From Candidatus Woesearchaeota archaeon (GTDB lineage Archaea > Nanobdellota > Nanobdellia > Woesearchaeales > CAZJJJ01), in NCBI GenBank assembly GCA_046546115.1, contig JBKGYM010000001.1, forward strand, positions 1 to 28,403: 28,403 nt of DNA, given 5' to 3'. Under the pieces are notes generated by a model that worked only from the letters and a program-made list of their open reading frames with translations, was not told the origin of the DNA and made no database searches. Each line of letters begins with the position of its first letter. Position 1 is the stretch's first letter. Of this stretch, positions 50 through 23,356 are shown piece after piece. A program made the position numbers and the translations under genes.

Positions 50-415
50 CTATTGGGATTCAGCATCTTTCTCTTTCTGAAGCTCCATGATCGCTTCTGC
101 TAAATCGCCATCGGACGCCTCTATAGCAGATTTGGCCTTATCTTCAGAGACTTCAGCCTGTTCAGCGACCATGGTGATATCCTCATCACTGATATCAGGA
201 GAATTATCAACTTTTTCTTCATGAGGTTCGCCAACCACCTGATATGTCTGAGAACCCATCATATTGACTTTCGATACTTGGGGTGAATCAAACACCAGTC
301 GCCTGTCTCCCAAATCAATGATTACTCGGGAGACATCCAACTCTTCCTGCTGCACACCCATCTTCTTCATCGCAGAACGCATCTGCTTAGAGTTCATATT
401 CATACCTGGAAGCAT
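50..415 (-). CDS. nac: Nascent polypeptide-associated complex protein (archaeal NAC)
   Basis: N-terminal NAC domain (MKKMGVQQEEL...VSKVNMMGSQTYQVVG), then a C-terminal UBA-like helix bundle (DITMVAEQAEVSEDKAKSAIEASDGDLAEAIM). Confidence 0.93.
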   Translation of the reverse strand: MLPGMNMNSKQMRSAMKKMGVQQEELDVSRVIIDLGDRRLVFDSPQVSKVNMMGSQTYQVVGEPHEEKVDNSPDISDEDITMVAEQAEVSEDKAKSAIEASDGDLAEAIMELQKEKDAESQ

Positions 416-428
416 AAGAGCACCTCAT

Positions 429-605
429 TCAAGAACCGAACCATATGCCGGCTTGCCAATGCAAAATCATCTGTACAATGATGACAACGACAACAAGAAT
501 CAACACATGCTCCGGTTTTACCTGCAGTTTTGATCTGCTGTCGCCAGAATATCTTACCAATCCACCTCCAGACGTGGGCATCTGGATCTTGTCATTCTTT
601 GCCAT
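429..605 (-). CDS. secG: Preprotein translocase subunit Sec61beta (archaeal SecG)
   Basis: MPTSGGGLVRY...KLQVKPEHV followed by one TM helix. Start moved from 728 to ATG 605: the longer ORF runs into the RNase P RNA, and a TATA box lies 31 nt upstream of 605. Confidence 0.88.
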   Translation of the reverse strand: MAKNDKIQMPTSGGGLVRYSGDSRSKLQVKPEHVLILVVVVIIVQMILHWQAGIWFGS

Positions 606-628
606 AGTTGTTGATAACCTCTGTTCAT

Positions 629-11868: not shown

Positions 11869-14800
11869 TCATGTCTTCACATGTAATCCTTTATACTCTT
11901 CATCAATTATGTCATGGCATCTCTTCAACATGGTGGCTCTCTCATCCCAACCGATGACAGCATCGGTAACATCATCCATCCACTCCCAGGTACCATGCAA
12001 GTTCTCATTCTTAGTGCCATACAACACTGCGACTGTGCCTCTCAAAGAACTCACTTTACCAATCTGGTCAACATAAGGGTTCACTGTCTGTTTACCTGCG
12101 TCCATTGCATAATAAACATTCCTTTCAGCACCTGAGCCATGATGATGCCTGTCTGCCGCAAGAAAGCGTGTGGCTTTTGATCTTTGCCCCTGTGCTTGTG
12201 TTGAGATATTACTGATTTCGGTCCTGCCAGATTTCATCTTATGAGCCAGATAAGCATACATATCATGGCCTTCTTCCGTTGGTACCTTCACAAGATCTGA
12301 ACTGAATGATTGGCCTCTGCCTGCTTCAGAGATGTGGAGCTTCCCTTCATCCTTATAAGAAATATCAAACATCCCTCCAAGAATGTCCGCTTCGTTCTCA
12401 CCATACTGCTTTGTTGTATTGAGATGGTTCCCGCTGGAAAGATAGACCTCTGTGCCATTATCCATCAACTCTTCAAGCGCTGGCTGTCTGTATCTCTTAA
12501 ACAGTTCCTTCTGGTGTTCCAAAGTGGGCACAGATTTAGCTAAAGCGTTCTCAAGCACATAGCTATCAATATGATCATGGATCTCCTCATCACGATAACC
12601 TGCTTTCTTGAGGCGTTCCCTCAAGATCTTGACATGCATATTCATGGTTATATCGTCCAGCGAACGGTTCTCACGGGCAGGATCATATTTCGTGCCCAAT
12701 GACTGATTACCATTAAGATATTCAGAACCGAAATGCATAGATATATTTTCCAGACCAAGCCTCTGTTCCGCTACTGATTGAGTAGCGTCAATAGCATCAT
12801 GATTTGATGGCCTGCCAGGATGATTATAGACACCATAATGATTATCATTATCCATCAGGATACTCTTGACCTCTGGAACAATCTCTTCATACAGGGCATT
12901 CAATCTTCTCTTATGCTTGTCTATACTCTTCTGGGTACGTGCTCTCTCTATCTTCGATTCCAATTCCCTTACCTGGGCAGAATACTTCTCAGCAATCTCT
13001 TCATAGAACAGGTCATTGAAGAAAATCCATTTCTCGCTTCCGTCTGGTTCCATCACCTGTAAAACATTGCCCGTTGTATCTCCACCTTTCTCGATACGCT
13101 TCAATTCCCATGTTCCTGTGTTTCCACGATTACCCATCTCTTTCAGGATATCAGTATCATGCCGGGTAGGGAGCTTGAGATAATTGGTCATCGGAATTGA
13201 TTCCCTGTATTCGCCTTTCACGACAGTCGGTGCCACCGTCGCTTTCTTGTTCCTGTTATAGCCATCGGCACCCCATCCTGTGAAGACCACATCTGAAAAT
13301 GCTAATGATCCTCTCTTCTTGAATTCCTCGATTGTCCTAGGGCGTTCTGAACCAATCAATATAGATTTCTTCACTGAATTTTCATGCTTGCCGATCAGTT
13401 CCGCGAGACTATTCTTAAGAGGTTCATTGGATCTTTGACGGTTGGTCCTAGGTACAGATGTGATGATCGTGCCATAGAGCTTTTTGTCAGGATATGAGTT
13501 ATAGCCATATATCTGTGCTGGATCGGGCACATATACCGAAATGTCACGGTCTGTATGAAGTTTTATATTCTTCTCCTCGCCTAAGAGAGATTTCAATTCT
13601 TTTGAGATCATGTCTTCATAGTATTTCTTATATCGGTTTTTCTGGGCCATCTCGATAGCTTTTGAGACCGTCGGATTTATATGGACCTGTTTAGTAAACC
13701 AAGCATGTCCAGATCTTTTTTCAGATTCTCTTGCAAGCTTCAGCTGCTCATATTCATCTATCGTATCCTTGGTATGGTCATACTTCCTGTCCACACTATC
13801 TCTTTTCTTAGTATCGGCCTCAAGTCTGGCGATGATGTCATCAAGATTTCTTATCTTGCTGTTATTGAGCCGCTTCTCCACCAATTCCCAGAAAAGTTCA
13901 TCAAATTCTCGTGAATTCATTGTTCCACGGGATGTCTTTTTCAGGTTTTTCTTGAATTCCTTCAATCCTTTTGAATTCTTATCAAAATATTCTTGCCCCA
14001 GGATCTCTCTTATCTTCTTCCCGGAAAGTGCATCTTCAATAGCTTCCATCCCTTCTGGCGACGGAATACCATAACGCTCATAATCCAGAGAACCTTCTTC
14101 ATACCTATTCCGAAGATCAAGATAAGAATCCTCGAGTCTCTCATCGATGGATACTGCAGTATTCTCTCGCAGCGATCTTATCTTAAGTTCTCCTTCTTTC
14201 TCATACAGTCCTGGAAGTTTCTCCTCTGCCTTGTTAGCCTCATTCTCAGACTTTCTCCATGCTTCTACAAGAAGCGTCTCTATCTCACTTAGATTGAAAT
14301 CATCATTATAACTATAATAGATGTGTATTGGGACTTCGTTAGGGACATTCTCAATCAGCGGCTTAAGCTCTTTCGCTACACTCGCCTTGGCCTCTTCAAA
14401 AGAATCTATGGTATTTATGACATATTTCCTTAGATTATTTATCTCTTTGGGACTCAGATCATCCCCGCTTGAACGACCCAATAATTCCTTGATGTCATTA
14501 GTCTCATCATAGAATATCTCATTGAATTCCTTGTCATCCAAGTTCTCATACTCCCGATTCTTTCCTGTGAGAAGCGCCCTGTTATTTTTGAGCTTACCAT
14601 AGAAAGATACCATCTGTGGCATGATGCCTCCTTGGAGATGGACACTGTTAAGCATCTCATCAAGCCCCATTGCCTTCCTCACCAGTCTTTCGCCTTCGAA
14701 TGCGCTCGTATTGGTGTATAAGGTTCCAAGACCCAGCTCAGAAGAATAAAGATGGTAACGGGGAACCCTATAATCTGAAATCTCCTCATCCCATCTTAGC

Positions 14801-15195
14801 TTATGCTGATTCGCGAGAGCCAGGACCAATGCCTGCTCCTCATCAAGAGTACCATTATTAGAAGGTAACTTCTCTGGTAAGTCCCATAAATCTTTGATCT
14901 CATTCAAGCGTTCGGAGATATATTCTTTGGATTTCCTTGTCCTTTTTGCAAGCTCAGAGAAGTCAGGGATCTTCTCATCAGAATAGGGATGCCATAATAT
15001 CGCTGAATTTGCAGGCAACTCCTTCTCAAGTCTCTTAAGGAGGCGCCTATGTTCTTTGTTCAATCCAAGACGAGGTGCGAGTACTGATGGAAATCCAGCA
15101 TCTGGCCCGTCTTGCTTTTCTTCATCAACAACTTCATTCCGGACATTCTCTTGTGGAGTTAACCTATCTTCCAAAGTCGTCCCAATAATCTTCAT
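11869..15195 (-). CDS. Large hypothetical protein: putative N-terminal HTH, then two calcineurin-like metallophosphoesterase-type domains with a helical insert
   Basis: 1108 aa with a GGGTGA SD. C-terminal motifs DNDNHYG, FGSE, SGNH, AHK and ADRHH resemble phosphoesterase motifs I-V. N-terminal equivalents SSELGLG, QGGIMP, SYNDD and TGWG are degenerate. The CDS is secure; the domain call is by eye. Confidence 0.6.
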   Translation of the reverse strand: MKIIGTTLEDRLTPQENVRNEVVDEEKQDGPDAGFPSVLAPRLGLNKEHRRLLKRLEKELPANSAILWHPYSDEKIPDFSELAKRTRKSKEYISERLNEIKDLWDLPEKLPSNNGTLDEEQALVLALANQHKLRWDEEISDYRVPRYHLYSSELGLGTLYTNTSAFEGERLVRKAMGLDEMLNSVHLQGGIMPQMVSFYGKLKNNRALLTGKNREYENLDDKEFNEIFYDETNDIKELLGRSSGDDLSPKEINNLRKYVINTIDSFEEAKASVAKELKPLIENVPNEVPIHIYYSYNDDFNLSEIETLLVEAWRKSENEANKAEEKLPGLYEKEGELKIRSLRENTAVSIDERLEDSYLDLRNRYEEGSLDYERYGIPSPEGMEAIEDALSGKKIREILGQEYFDKNSKGLKEFKKNLKKTSRGTMNSREFDELFWELVEKRLNNSKIRNLDDIIARLEADTKKRDSVDRKYDHTKDTIDEYEQLKLARESEKRSGHAWFTKQVHINPTVSKAIEMAQKNRYKKYYEDMISKELKSLLGEEKNIKLHTDRDISVYVPDPAQIYGYNSYPDKKLYGTIITSVPRTNRQRSNEPLKNSLAELIGKHENSVKKSILIGSERPRTIEEFKKRGSLAFSDVVFTGWGADGYNRNKKATVAPTVVKGEYRESIPMTNYLKLPTRHDTDILKEMGNRGNTGTWELKRIEKGGDTTGNVLQVMEPDGSEKWIFFNDLFYEEIAEKYSAQVRELESKIERARTQKSIDKHKRRLNALYEEIVPEVKSILMDNDNHYGVYNHPGRPSNHDAIDATQSVAEQRLGLENISMHFGSEYLNGNQSLGTKYDPARENRSLDDITMNMHVKILRERLKKAGYRDEEIHDHIDSYVLENALAKSVPTLEHQKELFKRYRQPALEELMDNGTEVYLSSGNHLNTTKQYGENEADILGGMFDISYKDEGKLHISEAGRGQSFSSDLVKVPTEEGHDMYAYLAHKMKSGRTEISNISTQAQGQRSKATRFLAADRHHHGSGAERNVYYAMDAGKQTVNPYVDQIGKVSSLRGTVAVLYGTKNENLHGTWEWMDDVTDAVIGWDERATMLKRCHDIIDEEYKGLHVKT

Positions 15196-15252
15196 CCATT
15201 CACCCTAAGAACATTTTATTAAAATCATGAAGTACATCATTATATAATTAAC

Positions 15253-15288: not shown

Positions 15289-15309
15289 TACATGCCCTCC
15301 CAGAAGATT

Positions 15310-16251
15310 ATGCCTACCAGGAAAATACAATTCATCGCAAACACCACATACTCTGTGTCACTTCCCAAGGAATGGATTATCAAGAATAACCTGGAACCGA
15401 AAAGCGAAGTCAGGATTTCGGAAACAAAAGAGAAAGATCTGCTGATCAGTAACATAAGGAAAAAGAGAGATGAAAGCACAGAGATAAAGCTTAGCCTGAG
15501 AGATGATGAGGAAGACATAGAAGAGATTATGATGGCCTGTTATCATAGAGGATTTGAGAAGATAACAATCAAGTCCGATTCGTACATAACAAAAAAAGAG
15601 AAAGAGATCCTGAGCAAGATTGCCAATAAAATGACTGGGACCGAAGTATCATTCGAGAAAGACAGGATGGTCATAAAGAACATTCTTGATCATAAGAAAT
15701 TAGATTTGAGACAGACACTATACAGGACATCACTGTTCCTTCAGGAATCCCTGAGAAGCATCATTGATGGAAACCCTGATCTTGTTGAGATTAAGCAAAA
15801 TGAGAAAGAGATCAACAGATTGGCACATCTTGCCATGAAGGTATGCTCACTGGCAACAAGGAACACAGGACTGCTCACCGCTTCAAGGATTGATGATAGT
15901 GATCATCTTCTGTACTTTCTGGACATAATCAAAGAACTTGAGAATCTTGGAGACCACATTCTCTTGATTGCGGAGAATGCAAATGACAGAGAAGATGCGA
16001 CAAAGCTAAGAATACTGGAAGACCTGTCTCATGAGCTTAAGAATACAATGGAGTTCATCATCTCGAACAAGAGAAAAAGATTCAGGAAGATGGATAAAAA
16101 AAAGCTCAAAAGGATGGAGAATCATACAAGAAAGATTGTAGACGGAGCCTGCAGAATGAACATGCAGGAAATATTAAGATGCGTGATGAGGATAGAAGAT
16201 AGCACGCTTGCTGAATCATTCCTAGAAAGAAATGCTGAACTTACCAAGTGA
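15310..16251 (+). CDS. phoU: AbrB/SpoVT-PhoU phosphate uptake regulator (COG0704-type)
   Basis: RKIQFIANTTYSVSLPKEWI AbrB-like N-terminus, then two PhoU-like helical repeats (EKEINRL, KELENLGDH). ATG 15310 is 29 nt from the TATA. Confidence 0.8.
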   Translation: MPTRKIQFIANTTYSVSLPKEWIIKNNLEPKSEVRISETKEKDLLISNIRKKRDESTEIKLSLRDDEEDIEEIMMACYHRGFEKITIKSDSYITKKEKEILSKIANKMTGTEVSFEKDRMVIKNILDHKKLDLRQTLYRTSLFLQESLRSIIDGNPDLVEIKQNEKEINRLAHLAMKVCSLATRNTGLLTASRIDDSDHLLYFLDIIKELENLGDHILLIAENANDREDATKLRILEDLSHELKNTMEFIISNKRKRFRKMDKKKLKRMENHTRKIVDGACRMNMQEILRCVMRIEDSTLAESFLERNAELTK

Positions 16252-16325: not shown

Positions 16326-17345
16326 ATGAAAGCAATAGATAAGACAATCATCTTCCTGGTCATAGTCATATCTATCGTTGGCTGGACTCAGATGTTTCAG
16401 GAGCATGGACCATTTGAGAACAGTAAGATCAATAGCGTATATGATAAAATAGAGATGGAAGTGTTTTTTTGCCCCAGGGATGACTGTAGAGAAGAGTTGA
16501 TATACAGGATAGAGCAAAGTGAAGAAATAAGATGTGCATTCTTTGATATTGATGATGATACATTGATCAAGGTCCTTGCTGAGAATGAGGCACAAGTTGT
16601 GATTGATGAGGATAACGCTGCTGAGGCAGACAGGTATGATATGAATATCTCTACAGCAGAGGGATCAGGATACATGCACAATAAATTCTGTGTATTTGAC
16701 GATGATCTGATAATGACGGGGTCAATGAATCCCACAGGGAATGGCATGAGAAAAAACAATAATAACGCCATATACATCACTTCAGATAAGCTTGCGCAGA
16801 ATTACCTGCATAAATTTGAGCAAATGTTTAAATATAACATTTTCAAGGATGACGACGCAGAACGCAGACCATTCCAGAAGATAGAAGATTTGGACAAGGG
16901 AATCTGGATAGAGAATCATTTCTGTCCTGAAGACAGATGTGAAGCTCAGATTTTAAGGCATATTGAACAAGCAGATGATAGCATACATTTCATGACGTTC
17001 AGCTTTACCAGCAAGGCAATAGCAGAAGATATTATAGAGAAGATGGAGGAAGTCAGAGTAAAAGGCATATTCGAGAATTGGGGCGCTGGCAGCGAATGGT
17101 CACAATACCAGACACTCAACAGACTTGATACCGGGAATTTCATACGCAAGAACATTAAAGGTAAGATGCACCACAAAGTCTTCATAATAGATGAAAAGAC
17201 AATCATCACAGGATCATATAATCCTTCAAAGAACGCAAACACTAATAACGATGAGAACATAGTCATAATACACGACAAAGAGATTTCGAAAGAATTCCTA
17301 GAAGAATTCAATTTGGTTTGGGATATGAATGGCTCAGGACAATGA
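16326..17345 (+). CDS. Phospholipase D superfamily nuclease/phosphodiesterase with N-terminal signal anchor
   Basis: Two intact HKD motifs (MHNKFCVFD...TGSMN and MHHKVFIID...TGSYN), two FCP.D motifs and a hydrophobic N-terminus. Confidence 0.9.
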   Translation: MKAIDKTIIFLVIVISIVGWTQMFQEHGPFENSKINSVYDKIEMEVFFCPRDDCREELIYRIEQSEEIRCAFFDIDDDTLIKVLAENEAQVVIDEDNAAEADRYDMNISTAEGSGYMHNKFCVFDDDLIMTGSMNPTGNGMRKNNNNAIYITSDKLAQNYLHKFEQMFKYNIFKDDDAERRPFQKIEDLDKGIWIENHFCPEDRCEAQILRHIEQADDSIHFMTFSFTSKAIAEDIIEKMEEVRVKGIFENWGAGSEWSQYQTLNRLDTGNFIRKNIKGKMHHKVFIIDEKTIITGSYNPSKNANTNNDENIVIIHDKEISKEFLEEFNLVWDMNGSGQ

Positions 17346-18303
17346 AATTTATGGCATAGGGGATGTGGCGATCAAGCTCATCATGCAAGTGGACAAGGAA
17401 AATCTTTCTAGATTGGATGTCTCCAAAGACAGGAACTTGTCTGTTGACATAGAGACTCGTGATAGGATACTTAAGAAAGCAAAAAATATCAGAAAAGATA
17501 TCAAGATTAAAAGTGACACATTCTATGTCATGAAAACACTGAACTCGCTTGGTGTGAAGACAAGCATGACATGTAAGATAGGGATGGATGAGTTCGGGAT
17601 GATATGCCAGAGTGAGTTAGAGAAGACAAGCATAGATATTGATTCAAAGATTGGGTTTGGTTGCACTGATTCCTGTTTGGAGTTCATAACTCCTGATCAG
17701 AGATCAACGAAGATATGGCATAGGGGTATCAGCAGAAACATAAACTACAAAGAGGTTGATGTACTGAAAGCAAAATCAGCAAAAGCCATCCTAATAGAAG
17801 AATCTATGCTCAATAATGCATCAAGAAGAAGAGCTGCCAGATTTGCTGCAAGGATATGCAAAGAGAATGGTGGAAAGATGATTTTCGACATGAATTCTCT
17901 GGATGTGATGCTGGATGACAAGGAGACTGTAGAAGAAATGATGGCTTTTGCTGATGTTGTCATAGCGCCCCATGATCAGATATACCTGCTGGCAGAATCT
18001 AACGGAAAGCAGGAGATTGCAGACAAGCTCAAGAAGGATGGAGATATCCTGATCATTAAAGAGAGGAAGGGATTCAATTTCAAGCAAGATGACGATACCT
18101 TCTTTGTTGATAGGCCTGACGGAGGGACAGAACATGCCGAGCAATATTTCACGGCAGGGATAATCTTCGGGACAATCATGGAATACAGATTAAGGGATAC
18201 TGGCAGAATTGCATCCTATTTATCAAGCAGAAAGATTGTGGACGATTCTATACTTGATGATCTGAACGAGATGTTCAGAGGAAGGGATAAGAATGAGAGA
18301 TGA
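17329..18303 (+). CDS. PfkB/ribokinase-family protein with a degenerate catalytic motif
   Basis: YGIGD, CKIGMDEFG, FITPDQRST, IFDMN match the PfkB fold; canonical GAGD is replaced by HAEQ in TEHAEQYFTAG. Confidence 0.7.
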   Translation: MAQDNEIYGIGDVAIKLIMQVDKENLSRLDVSKDRNLSVDIETRDRILKKAKNIRKDIKIKSDTFYVMKTLNSLGVKTSMTCKIGMDEFGMICQSELEKTSIDIDSKIGFGCTDSCLEFITPDQRSTKIWHRGISRNINYKEVDVLKAKSAKAILIEESMLNNASRRRAARFAARICKENGGKMIFDMNSLDVMLDDKETVEEMMAFADVVIAPHDQIYLLAESNGKQEIADKLKKDGDILIIKERKGFNFKQDDDTFFVDRPDGGTEHAEQYFTAGIIFGTIMEYRLRDTGRIASYLSSRKIVDDSILDDLNEMFRGRDKNER

Positions 18304-19189
18304 AAAGATGAAGGATGTTATATCAAATCTATTCAGAGGGATTGCGATGGGGTCTGCAGACATAATACCTGGTGTGTCGGGAGGGACAATCGCTCTCATC
18401 ACAGGGATATACGCGAGACTTATCGGAGCAATCAGAGGGATATTCAGCATGATTGAGACAGGAGAGTCTATATCTCTCATCACAGGAGACAATGCTCGAC
18501 GGAAGAAAATATTCAAGAAGTCGGACCCATCATTGATCCTCCCTCTTCTGACTGGAATATTTATCGCAGTATTTTTATTATCAAACTTGATTGTGCATCT
18601 CGTAGAGAACTTCGAGATAGGCACATATTCTTTCTTCATCGGCCTTGTGGTGGCTTCTTCAATACTTCTAGCATTCCAATCTGGCCTAGATAAGATGTAT
18701 AGAGTGTTGATCATGGCTATCGGCATCGCCATCGGTGCGCTGCTTGCAGGAATGCCTGCTACATTTCAATTCACTGGATGGGCAATCCTCTTCATCTCAG
18801 GTGCGGTTGCTATCACCGCGATGATACTGCCTGGCATATCAGGTTCATTGGTCATACTGATGTTAGGACAATATGAGAGGGTACTTCAAGCGGTAAAAGA
18901 CATAAGCATCTTGGAGATTTTGATATTCATATCTGGATGTATTGTCGGGCTAGGGGCCTTCTCTAATCTCTTGAGCAGACTCATGAGAGACCACGAGAAA
19001 AGCACAAAAGCTTTCCTTGTCGGTCTTATGCTCGGAAGCTTAAGATATCAGTGGGACATCATCAGTACAGCAGGGATAGAAGAACCATTGAAAGCAGCGA
19101 CTTCTTTGATGTTCATCACAATAGGCACCATGGTGATAATGTTAATCGGTTATCTGAGCCATACACGCTATAGAAGACAAGAAGCATGA
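18293..19189 (+). CDS. DUF368 family membrane protein (PopT-like polyprenyl-phosphate translocase)
   Basis: GIAMGSADIIPGVSGGTIALITGIY and AMILPGISGSLVILMLGQY repeats, with many TM helices. Confidence 0.92.
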   Translation: MRDEKMKDVISNLFRGIAMGSADIIPGVSGGTIALITGIYARLIGAIRGIFSMIETGESISLITGDNARRKKIFKKSDPSLILPLLTGIFIAVFLLSNLIVHLVENFEIGTYSFFIGLVVASSILLAFQSGLDKMYRVLIMAIGIAIGALLAGMPATFQFTGWAILFISGAVAITAMILPGISGSLVILMLGQYERVLQAVKDISILEILIFISGCIVGLGAFSNLLSRLMRDHEKSTKAFLVGLMLGSLRYQWDIISTAGIEEPLKAATSLMFITIGTMVIMLIGYLSHTRYRRQEA

Positions 19190-21230: not shown

Positions 21231-22022
21231 TCAGAGACCATAAGCAGAAGCAAGCACCTTCAGATCTATAGCTCCATGAAGAGGATCGGGTGATTCATTT
21301 ATGATTGTGAGCTCAATTTCAGTCTTCGCTGCAGCCTCAAGCAAAGGCTTCAGAAACTCATCAGTCATCTGGATGTGATTGGTCTCGCCTTTCTCTGAAT
21401 ACTCGATGCCTGAAAAATGACAATGCAGTCTCTTCAGCTTATTTTCTGTGAATTTTCGGAAAATATCATCATAGTCTATCTTACCATTCTGTCTTGCGAA
21501 GATGTGTGCAAAATCAACACAGATCTTGCACCCAGTGTCCTGCATCAGCTGGAGAAGCTCATCAACATCACCAAACTGACTCTTCTTCCCTGTCGTCTCT
21601 GGACAAAGGTTTACCTGTAGTTTCTCCTTCTTGATCACATCGAGCAGATCCTTTATCTGGTCCCGTACAATATTATAAGAATCGTGTTTGTTCCTCTTCT
21701 GATAATATCCTGGATGAAACACTATAGAATCAGCCCCAAGATAATGACCTCTTCTGCATGAATCAAGGATACGTTTTTTTGAAGCTTCAACCTTATGTTC
21801 TTCAGAAGATAGGAGATTTATGTAATAAGGGGCATGTATGCTGAGCCTAAGACCAAGCTCTTTAGCAAGGGAGCCTACTTCCTTTGCCTTTTTCTCACCC
21901 ATGGTCACACCCCTGACAAACTCGATCTCTTGGGCATCAAGCCCTAATTCCTTGATTGTCTTGAGAGAAGATACAATATCGGGTGCAGCATTCCCTCCCG
22001 GCCCTGATAAAATTCTAGCCAT
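21231..22022 (-). CDS. nfo: Endonuclease IV (AP endonuclease family 2, archaeal COG0648 type)
   Basis: QEIEFVRGV, HAPYYINL, VFHPG, PETTGKKSQFG, VDFAH, HCHFSG, NES. Start moved to ATG 22022 (TTATTAAA 30 nt upstream). Confidence 0.9.
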   Translation of the reverse strand: MARILSGPGGNAAPDIVSSLKTIKELGLDAQEIEFVRGVTMGEKKAKEVGSLAKELGLRLSIHAPYYINLLSSEEHKVEASKKRILDSCRRGHYLGADSIVFHPGYYQKRNKHDSYNIVRDQIKDLLDVIKKEKLQVNLCPETTGKKSQFGDVDELLQLMQDTGCKICVDFAHIFARQNGKIDYDDIFRKFTENKLKRLHCHFSGIEYSEKGETNHIQMTDEFLKPLLEAAAKTEIELTIINESPDPLHGAIDLKVLASAYGL

Positions 22023-22111
22023 AGAACCATGGTACCATCTGTCGTTTAATAATCTGTCGCCAAGAACGGATATAGAAAAGTTTTTTATGGATTGGCCCAA
22101 TCCTTAAGCTG

Positions 22112-23356
22112 ATGAAATTCTCACACATAGCTGATTGTCACATAGGGTCATACAGAGACGAAAGGATGAGCAATCTCACATTAGAAGCTTTCAAGAGAGC
22201 CGTTGAGAATTCAATTGCCGAGAAGGTTGATTTTATATTGATTTCCGGCGATCTGTTCAATACTTCAATCCCCTCGATAGACAGTATCAAAGAGACTGCA
22301 AGCTTGCTGAGGAAGCTATATGTTGCAGGCATACCTGTGTATGTGATCGCAGGAAGCCATGATTTCTCCCCGTCAGGCAAGACGATGCTTGACGTCTTTG
22401 AGAATTCAGGATTATGCAAGAATGTCGCCAGAGGAAAGACTGATGAAGAGGGAAAATTGAAACTCACTTTCACTGTTGATGAAACGACAGATGCTAAGAT
22501 GACGGGCGTTGTGGGAAGAAGGGGGAGCCTTGAGCGGTCTTATTATGAAGCCATGGATAATGAGGAGATTGAGAATGCCAGTGGATTTAAGATATTCATG
22601 TTCCACAGCGCAATCACCGAACTCAAGCCTAAAGGTATGGAGAAGACAGAATCATCACCAATCAGTTACCTCCCAAAAGGCTTCAACTATTATGCAGGAG
22701 GTCATGTACACTCTGTCATCAAATATTCCTCTGATGAGCTTGGTGGAGTCATAGCTTATCCAGGACCTCTATTCCCTAACACTTTCAAGGAGATTGAGGA
22801 TCTTGAGCAGGGCGGATTCTATATCTTTGACTCTTCACATCCAGACCTTCTAAGGTTTATACCCATCAGATTAAAAGAAATCATCAAGATCGGGGTTGAT
22901 GCGACCATGAAGTCTCCCGAAGAAGTGCTCTCCGAATTGCACGAAAAGACAGAAAAAGAAGAACTGACAGACAAGATTGTCCTGATCAGGATATGGGGCA
23001 AGCTTGGGAATGGTAACACATCAGATGTGAAACTAGGAGAGACAATAGCAGAGATGTATGAACAAGGCGCATTCTTTATCCTCAGGAACACCGCTTCGCT
23101 CACTTCAGAATCATTTGAGGAGATGAGGCCAACAACAGAATCATTAGCAAACTTGGAACATGAGGTGATAGAGAAGAACACAGGCCAGATGAAATTCTCA
23201 AAAATCCCTCTGAAAGATGAGAAAGCCACCGCCAGGGAACTTGTAGAGATGTTAGACATAGAAAAACAAGAAGGTGAGACGAGCAAGGATTTTGAGGAGA
23301 GAGTCCTGGAGAATGCATCATTTCTTGATAAGCTGACTGATGAAGATACTGAATGA
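22112..23356 (+). CDS. mre11: Mre11/SbcD-like DNA repair exonuclease
   Basis: ADCHIG, GDLF, GSHD, FMFH, GGHVH, YPG metallophosphoesterase motifs plus a capping domain. Confidence 0.88.
   Translation: MKFSHIADCHIGSYRDERMSNLTLEAFKRAVENSIAEKVDFILISGDLFNTSIPSIDSIKETASLLRKLYVAGIPVYVIAGSHDFSPSGKTMLDVFENSGLCKNVARGKTDEEGKLKLTFTVDETTDAKMTGVVGRRGSLERSYYEAMDNEEIENASGFKIFMFHSAITELKPKGMEKTESSPISYLPKGFNYYAGGHVHSVIKYSSDELGGVIAYPGPLFPNTFKEIEDLEQGGFYIFDSSHPDLLRFIPIRLKEIIKIGVDATMKSPEEVLSELHEKTEKEELTDKIVLIRIWGKLGNGNTSDVKLGETIAEMYEQGAFFILRNTASLTSESFEEMRPTTESLANLEHEVIEKNTGQMKFSKIPLKDEKATARELVEMLDIEKQEGETSKDFEERVLENASFLDKLTDEDTE

Follow-up and report, generated by a model that had tools for sequence, protein, structure and literature searches.

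Members of the metallophosphoesterase (MPE) superfamily share a four-layer alpha/beta-beta/alpha fold and a two-metal site whose ligands are supplied by five motifs, DxH, GD, GNH[DE], H and GHxH. Among the described systems closest to the protein reported here, DP1 of polymerase PolD is a 3′-5′ exonuclease on DNA, the Mre11-Rad50 complex sets two MPE domains side by side in association with a long antiparallel coiled coil, and the B-subunits of the eukaryotic polymerases alpha, delta and epsilon retain the MPE fold as an inactive scaffold. The A1 protein of phage T5 is a predicted metallophosphatase with Mre11/DP1-like features that in vivo is both required for breakdown of the host chromosome and enough to cause it; nuclease activity is not yet demonstrated for the purified protein (bioRxiv 10.64898/2026.04.02.716235). 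We describe a gene in a 28,403-nucleotide stretch of DNA, hereafter the window, from an assembly of Candidatus Woesearchaeota archaeon (GCA_046546115.1, contig JBKGYM010000001.1, positions 1 to 28,403). The gene occupies 11869..15195 on the minus strand, where it is the sole long reading frame, and consists of 1108 codons with an ATG start, followed by a stop. An initial annotation, made from the letters alone, had read its product as two tandem MPE domains, one active and one degenerate, with a long helical insert and a putative helix-turn-helix (HTH), and had named defence, signalling-nucleotide turnover and nucleic-acid scavenging as possible roles.

The reading that we favor, with a probability of roughly 0.55, is that the protein is a DNA-directed MPE nuclease in which one domain is catalytic and the other, bearing the coiled-coil arm and the HTH, would act as a scaffold.

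Two MPE domains in one chain

An AlphaFold2 model, computed on a 59-sequence family alignment that reaches down to 17% identity, had a mean predicted local distance difference test score (pLDDT) of 90.5 and a predicted template-modelling (pTM) score of 0.84, with disorder confined to residues 1-32. On this model the protein almost certainly consists of two MPE domains in tandem within a single chain. The same layout of segments (Table 1) was found in 59 of 59 family members.

Foldseek searches of the PDB returned only metallophosphoesterases as top matches to the C-terminal domain (PolD DP1, Mre11, purple acid phosphatase, GpdQ and Vps29; E about 1e-4). In VIA-align comparisons, residues 775-1078 superimposed on residues 351..619 of PolD DP1 with a Z score of 17.1 (220-231 residues aligned, root-mean-square deviation (rmsd) 2.7-3.0), and the polymerase delta B-subunit scored Z 14.3 and Mre11 Z 13-14. 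The closest structures include a proofreading 3′-5′ exonuclease and Mre11, and the cyclic nucleotide (cNMP) phosphodiesterase Rv0805 ranked lower (Z 12.8).

The five stretches singled out earlier in this region, ILMDNDNHYG (residues 779-788), MHFGSE (820-825), YLSSGNHL (918-925), YLAHK (982-986) and FLAADRHHHG (1011-1020), were located and contain the motifs NDxH (783-786), [ST]E (824-825), GNH (922-924), HK (985-986) and DRHH (1015-1018), none of which varies within the close clade. Because N783/D784/H786, E825, G922/N923/H924, H985 and D1015/R1016/H1017 were invariant in 19 homologues of 35-45% identity, the quoted motifs are real and not the product of chance. Across the 59 sequences, GNH, H985 and H1017 remained invariant, and D784 and H786 were at least 90% conserved. 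The predicted ligands are D784 and H786, E825, N923 and H924, H985, and D1015 and H1017. Two of these are conservative swaps in the close clade, in which the bridging Asp of motif II is replaced by Glu and the first His of motif V by Asp; distant members carry canonical GDxH, GD, GNH, H and GHxH in identical alignment columns. The equivalent domain of three homologues exceeded the 21.5-bit cut-off of Pfam Metallophos PF00149 (P0049, 26.0 bits; P0068, 23.9; P0081, 22.8), and the 1108-residue protein itself (P0001) had no PF00149 match. Since a metal-binding residue fills every ligand position, we infer an active two-metal centre, and the C-terminal domain is probably catalytically competent.

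The same residues bear on an alternative in which both MPE domains are pseudo-enzymes and the protein is a non-catalytic scaffold that recruits partners through its coiled coil, as with Vps29 and the polymerase B-subunits. Both of these are among the fold matches, and motifs II and V are non-canonical in the close clade. Retention of metal-binding residues at all ligand positions, invariant or nearly so over 59 sequences, and the fully canonical motifs of relatives in the same columns would nevertheless be unexpected for a dead site, and we regard a purely structural role as very improbable.

As the C-terminal domain dominated the match lists, the N-terminal domain was folded separately (residues 112-772; pLDDT 92.3) and compared with 48,161 PDB representatives without a Foldseek prefilter (VIA-wide). 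Every one of the top 46 chains had an MPE fold. Protein residues 143-732 (model 32-621) aligned with PolD DP1 349..619 at Z 16.4 (rmsd 3.2, 232 residues), and the next ranks were taken by the delta, epsilon and alpha B-subunits (Z 14.0, 12.4 and 11.6 among the three), MJ0936 and Mre11. The best shape match in the ESM Atlas was an archaeal DNA_pol_E_B/Metallophos cluster (TM by hit 0.71). Both of the MPE folds that the initial annotation had proposed to seek by structure prediction were therefore recovered.

The degenerate motif series noted in this half of the protein could also be placed (LYSSELGLG, 149-157; VHLQGGIMP, 185-193; IYYSYNDD, 292-299; VFTGWG, 637-642). The motif positions read SSELGLG, QGG, YNDD, H547 and GWGADG, in a register inferred from strand order, and most ligands are gone: Gly stands at the motif-I His and at the bridging Asp of motif II, and Trp or Gly at both motif-V histidines. 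This bears out the proposed pairing of one intact with one degenerate domain. Distant members retain His at the first motif-V position (HGxGG). At best, the N-terminal site would seem to be a remnant for a single metal. Strongly conserved blocks at 582-592 (PRTNRQRSNEP), 676-680 (PTRHD) and 691-705 (GN.GTW..KR..KGG), and GHAWFTK where the arm joins the domain, may mark an interface or a surface for binding.

The arm is an insert of roughly 245 residues (14.7% Glu, 12.7% Lys) that, within the first MPE domain, separates strand 3 (pseudo-motif III) from the strand of motif IV. It comprises a 70-residue outgoing helix, a helical apex at about 372-443, and returning helices at 451-493 and 508-538. 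A Lys- and Glu-rich helical segment of about 250 residues had been called from the sequence; AlphaFold2 models it as helices within 296-538, and its presence and position are kept in 59 of 59 members. At the break between the returning helices, the conserved GHAWFTK or FT[KR] loop (residues 495-501; window about 13693-13713, minus strand) is the sole low-confidence spot within the fold (pLDDT about 54) and may be a functional loop or hinge.

The HTH-like stretch corresponds to residues 79-100, which AlphaFold2 builds as a helix-turn-helix with high confidence. The region has a conserved hydrophobic and Gly pattern, I[AS]..G.....V...L..I; one distant homologue matches Pfam HTH_8, and another is annotated by its source as 'biotin operon repressor'. 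An N-terminal HTH is plausible on the model and, as several family members do not have the N-terminal region, it would be an accessory module.

Each of the two domains has PolD DP1 (PDB 5ihe, 8ppt, 6t8h) as its closest structure, with the same five-motif two-metal scaffold, but only about 10% of residues are identical, and searches by sequence gave no match to DP1 and none to PF04042 (DNA_pol_E_B). The 1108-residue protein does not have the OB-fold or DP2-binding context of DP1 and instead has two MPE domains, a coiled-coil insert and an HTH; it is not a member of the DP1/PF04042 family, and the likeness is at the level of fold only. With Mre11/SbcD it shares an MPE nuclease fold, and it may be a single-chain analogue of the paired domains and coiled coil of that system. 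It has, however, no Mre11 capping domain, Rad50 ABC ATPase or zinc hook, and its coiled coil is inserted in the degenerate MPE domain. No NCBIfam or Pfam match to Mre11/SbcD was obtained (Mre11_2nd reached only 13 bits, sub-threshold, at residues 272-309), and no Rad50 gene is adjacent. The initial annotation had likened the protein to Mre11; the nearest structures are PolD DP1 and the polymerase B-subunits and not Mre11. The B-subunits are stand-alone proteins with an OB fold that bind a polymerase C-terminal domain, and no such partner is evident here.

Among viral proteins, the best matches were phage MPEs, several of them annotated 'DNA polymerase II small subunit'. Phage clusters of about 680 residues in the ESM Atlas aligned over 490 residues that take in the two MPE domains (TM by hit 0.62 and 0.58), and in the YonJ_N/YonJ_CC phage MPEs, too, a coiled-coil domain accompanies the MPE domain. 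These are predicted models of shorter proteins that do not have the 245-residue insert, and there is no sequence-level link. By fold and motifs the protein belongs to the MPE superfamily, and it is a member of none of Mre11, DP1/PF04042, T5 A1 or any PADLOC system.

Table 1. Features of the gene and its product, with window positions and, for segments, their lengths in the family
Feature	Position in window	Strand	Basis	Length across family
Whole gene, 1108 aa	11869..15195	-	full-length homologues, 34-45% identity	
Residues 1-32, acidic, poorly conserved, predicted disordered	15100..15195	-	pLDDT < 50; alignment length varies	
Residues 35-110, small helical domain, HTH-like helices 79-86 and 90-103	14866..15093	-	AlphaFold2 pLDDT 78-98	
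N-terminal extension				variable
Residues 143-295, degenerate MPE, first half (strands 1-3; SSELGLG, QGG, YNDD)	14311..14769	-	VIA-align, motif alignment	about 145 aa
Residues 296-540, helical insert	13576..14310	-	AlphaFold2, family alignment	128-258 aa
Residues 541-727, degenerate MPE, second half (H547 at motif-IV position; GWGADG at motif-V position)	13015..13575	-		about 170 aa
Residues 728-772, two-helix inter-domain linker (728-751, 755-772)	12880..13014	-	AlphaFold2	about 48 aa
Residues 773-1081, C-terminal MPE, complete ligand set	11953..12879	-	VIA-align, Foldseek, motifs	about 295 aa
Residues 1083-1107, C-terminal helix, shorter in distant members	11875..11949	-	AlphaFold2	
Upstream region holding the Shine-Dalgarno-like and TATA-like elements	15200..15250	-	sequence reading	
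Shine-Dalgarno-like GGGTGA, 4 nt before ATG	15200-15205	-	read from sequence; candidate	
AT-rich TATA-like boxes, 20-55 nt upstream of ATG	15213-15224 and 15240-15250	-	read from sequence; candidate	

An undescribed family in DPANN archaea

A word-indexed search found 21 homologues. The majority were full-length proteins of 1044-1143 aa, with 34-45% identity over 93-99% of the query. Exhaustive phmmer searches extended the family to 73 clusters at 50% identity, 63 of them with E <= 1e-10, and added a second tier of 820-1020 aa at 17-27% identity; homologue lengths ranged from 820 to 1210 aa overall. Clusters of the AlphaFold DB contributed eight full-length fold relatives (790-1209 aa, E 1e-10 to 1e-69). 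All members with an organism label or a readable gene context come from Woesearchaeota, Nanoarchaeota or DPANN-type archaea: the close relatives that carry names are metagenome-assembled genomes of Woesearchaeota or Nanoarchaeota, and the distant members lie among archaeal housekeeping genes. Of 401 genomes sampled from the phylum, 18, spread over many families, carried a single copy each by the family hidden Markov model (HMM), and a search with the single protein in place of the HMM found the gene in 11 of 301 genomes.

Searches of Pfam, NCBIfam, PHROGs and PADLOC with the 1108-residue protein gave only sub-threshold noise, and PADLOC in particular returned 0 families at E values up to 1. 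Sequence searches of the PDB, by phmmer with the protein and with the family profile, yielded only coiled-coil noise. No description of the architecture was found in Pfam, NCBIfam, the PDB or the literature searched, and nothing relevant was found in the literature on YonJ or on DPANN MPE/coiled-coil proteins. The view that the protein matches no named family has thus stood up to database searches, and, of the outcomes set beforehand as counting against the initial annotation, neither absence of an MPE fold nor a match to a characterised family occurred. Taken together, these data define an undescribed tandem-MPE family that is patchy and, as far as sampled, restricted to DPANN archaea.

Public labels on some homologues look unreliable (P0003 (L011), P0071, L010 and L033, with labels that include FliE and 'biotin operon repressor'); the JGI label 'flagellar hook-basal body protein FliE' is clearly spurious. 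Two homologue contigs are filed as 'Methanococcoides sp. SA1' and 'uncultured Methanosarcinales archaeon', yet their housekeeping context is DPANN-like, which suggests mislabelled or contaminated bins.

A syntenic slot filled by a T5 A1-like gene in a congener

A genome of the same genus (G146, 98% complete) contained no family member by family HMM or protein searches. Its contig C50 keeps the synteny of the window, and the slot is filled by a 484-aa open reading frame, P0089 (L032:6195-7649, plus strand), which is flanked by an AbrB-PhoU gene and NMD3 and is inverted just as the 1108-codon gene is. P0089 carries the motifs GDWHVGD, SNHDD, NHGH and MHSH and had no match in Pfam. The ESM Atlas places it in the phage clusters 'T5 A1 family' and 'DNA transfer protein' (feature score 0.96; TM 0.87 over 442-451 residues); the 1108-residue protein was not placed in the A1 clusters.

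The two families resemble one another in several respects: A1-like proteins are MPE-type, a member occupies the identical slot in the congener, and both are patchy and single-copy in Nanoarchaeota, A1-like genes being present, one copy each, in 20 of the same 401 genomes. They differ in that A1-like proteins are only about 450-560 aa and have no long helical insert, and comparison of the 1108-residue family with A1-like proteins was not significant (BLASTP E 0.43; hhalign probability 5.9%). No genome among the 401 held both genes, a result that is itself not significant, as about 0.9 would be expected by chance.

These observations could mean that the protein is a nuclease of defence against viruses or plasmids, or else a host-DNA-degrading viral nuclease that has been domesticated, encoded by an accessory gene that is exchanged among DPANN archaea and interchangeable with T5 A1-like genes. 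The patchy single-copy distribution, the absence from a nearly complete congener whose syntenic slot holds an A1-family gene, and the equally patchy A1-like genes that share no sampled genome with it would all fit, as would protein-language-model and fold neighbours that are mostly phage MPEs. Set against this, the missing overlap and the profile-profile comparison are both short of significance, no defence-island context was seen, PADLOC gave no match, and neither tblastn searches of GenBank phages with the C-terminal domain nor scans of IMG/VR viral contigs with close-clade and distant-clade alignments found a relative. As the two virus searches were empty, nothing indicates that the gene lies in a virus or provirus. 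The idea overlaps the favored nuclease reading in mechanism; as an account of the biological role we consider it doubtful.

In the window, a gene whose product has an AbrB/MazE-fold N-terminus and a PhoU domain (15292-16251, plus strand) divergently adjoins the MPE gene. In G146 the AbrB-PhoU gene (L032:5132-6091, minus strand) divergently adjoins the A1-like gene, and in G190, from a different taxonomic family, a gene in which only the AbrB part was detected (L013:402-1283, minus strand) divergently adjoins the family member. The AbrB-PhoU gene is absent from the syntenic locus L011. Its product may regulate the slot. In genome G211, some 700 bp separate an A1-like gene from a downstream gene whose product is a homologue (49% identity) of the Mre11-like protein encoded in the window (L042:1489-2817 and L042:3547-4311), an arrangement that hints further that such MPE genes sit among DNA-repair genes.

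Gene neighbourhood and predicted function

The window is archaeal, encoding TFS/RpoM, NMD3, an archaeal CCA-adding enzyme, AMMECR1 and uS15, and comes from an assembly of 0.97 Mb with 83% completeness. The contig DNA is present in hypersaline-lake and microbial-mat metagenomes, and a search of RNA-seq runs found the gene in none. The protein is predicted to be cytoplasmic. The window has the order CCA, DUF368, PfkB, PLD, the gene at issue and NMD3, and three genomes share this synteny. Downstream of the AbrB-PhoU gene, window positions 16326-19189 (plus strand) encode PLD, PfkB-like and DUF368 (VCA0040-like) proteins, followed by a 220-aa protein and the CCA-adding enzyme. This cluster is syntenic in four genomes (the window, L011, L032 and L033) at 42-58% identity, and the PLD-PfkB-DUF368 cluster is accordingly conserved in the lineage.

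There is no conserved operon partner, and neighbours differ between the lineages surveyed. Genes for DNA repair or DNA handling do recur among them: in one clade UDG lies directly downstream of the family gene and RadA a few genes upstream, and an Ada zinc domain, XPF/Hef, a KaiC/RadB-like ATPase and a HerA-like ATPase are encoded beside family genes elsewhere, so that several independent contexts are represented. These neighbours are suggestive of a role with DNA.

An HD-domain protein and an ITPase-like NTPase are also among the neighbours, and these could instead fit a small-molecule phosphodiesterase that turns over cyclic mono-, di- or oligonucleotides, Ap4A or nucleotides and uses its HTH and coiled coil for regulation or oligomerisation. 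The MPE superfamily contains cNMP phosphodiesterases and nucleotidases, and Rv0805, GpdQ, MJ0936 and 5′-nucleotidases were among the structural matches (Z 10-13). DP1 and Mre11 nevertheless score higher than any of these, the surroundings hold no cyclase and no partner of CARF/SAVED type, PADLOC was empty, and the combination of an HTH with a long coiled coil is atypical of such enzymes. A small-molecule substrate is therefore unlikely.

Replacement of a standard enzyme was also considered. The host genome carries a PolD DP1-DP2 pair on contig C10, and replacement of PolD was rejected on that ground. Replacement of Mre11 was likewise rejected, as a 414-aa Mre11-like MPE is encoded at 22112-23356 (plus strand) and Rad50/SMC-like candidates are present in the host genome. 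The Mre11-like protein matches NCBIfam Mre11_Pyroc at E 2e-33, far below the equivalog cut-off; its gene has no adjacent Rad50 and adjoins uS15 and a gene for an endonuclease-IV-type AP endonuclease (21231-22100). In an hhalign comparison, the family profile and the Mre11-like protein showed no significant similarity.

On the favored reading, the C-terminal domain would be a catalytic two-metal phosphodiesterase with conservatively altered ligands, and the N-terminal domain (residues 143-727) a scaffold or substrate-binding partner similar to the inactive eukaryotic polymerase B-subunits. The latter would carry the antiparallel coiled-coil arm with its small apex, and the HTH would provide nucleic-acid binding. 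DNA would be cleaved exo- or endonucleolytically, either in repair and processing or in the degradation of foreign or imported DNA. Catalysis, the DNA substrate, the scaffold role and the biological role are all predictions from sequence and structure models. The balance tips modestly towards DNA as the substrate, on the strength of the closest structures, the HTH, the related phage proteins, the neighbouring genes and the A1 swap.

Several points weigh against such a nuclease. The Glu of motif II and the Asp of motif V are unusual and could alter or abolish activity, and that the ligands converge on one site is deduced by aligning them with relatives whose motifs are canonical. Enzymes with an MPE fold act on nucleotides, cyclic nucleotides, lipids and phosphoproteins as well, and similarity of fold leaves the substrate undecided. 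Most neighbouring genes are housekeeping genes, without a conserved partner, and the repair genes among them were counted post hoc. Finally, since Mre11-like, Rad50/SMC-like and PolD genes are already present, no obvious gap is filled.

A more speculative proposal joins these elements. DPANN chromosomes would hold a slot, beside an AbrB-PhoU regulator, for interchangeable phage-type DP1/Mre11-like DNases, with the 1108-residue protein in the window and a T5 A1-like enzyme in the congener. In ultra-small symbionts that are auxotrophic for nucleotides, such enzymes would destroy foreign or host-derived DNA for immunity, nucleotide salvage or both, and the larger protein would be a single-chain functional analogue of an Mre11 dimer with a Rad50-like arm that needs no ATPase. 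Taken jointly, these steps are improbable.

The MPE fold is well known; what is undescribed in the libraries and papers searched is the architecture, in which an HTH and a degenerate MPE domain split by a coiled-coil arm precede an MPE domain that is predicted to be active. Because a gene of 1100 codons is costly in tiny DPANN genomes, its persistence in separate lineages with 35-45% identity means that it must have a real function. If the protein is a DNA nuclease, it would represent a third type of MPE nuclease in archaeal DNA metabolism, beside Mre11 and PolD DP1, and would offer a natural single-chain model in which an inactive MPE partner and a coiled coil replace homodimerisation and Rad50. 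Since a sister species has a T5 A1-like gene in its place, it is connected with a phage enzyme by which host chromosomes are destroyed, and this link suggests a testable route to how DPANN archaea handle foreign or host DNA.

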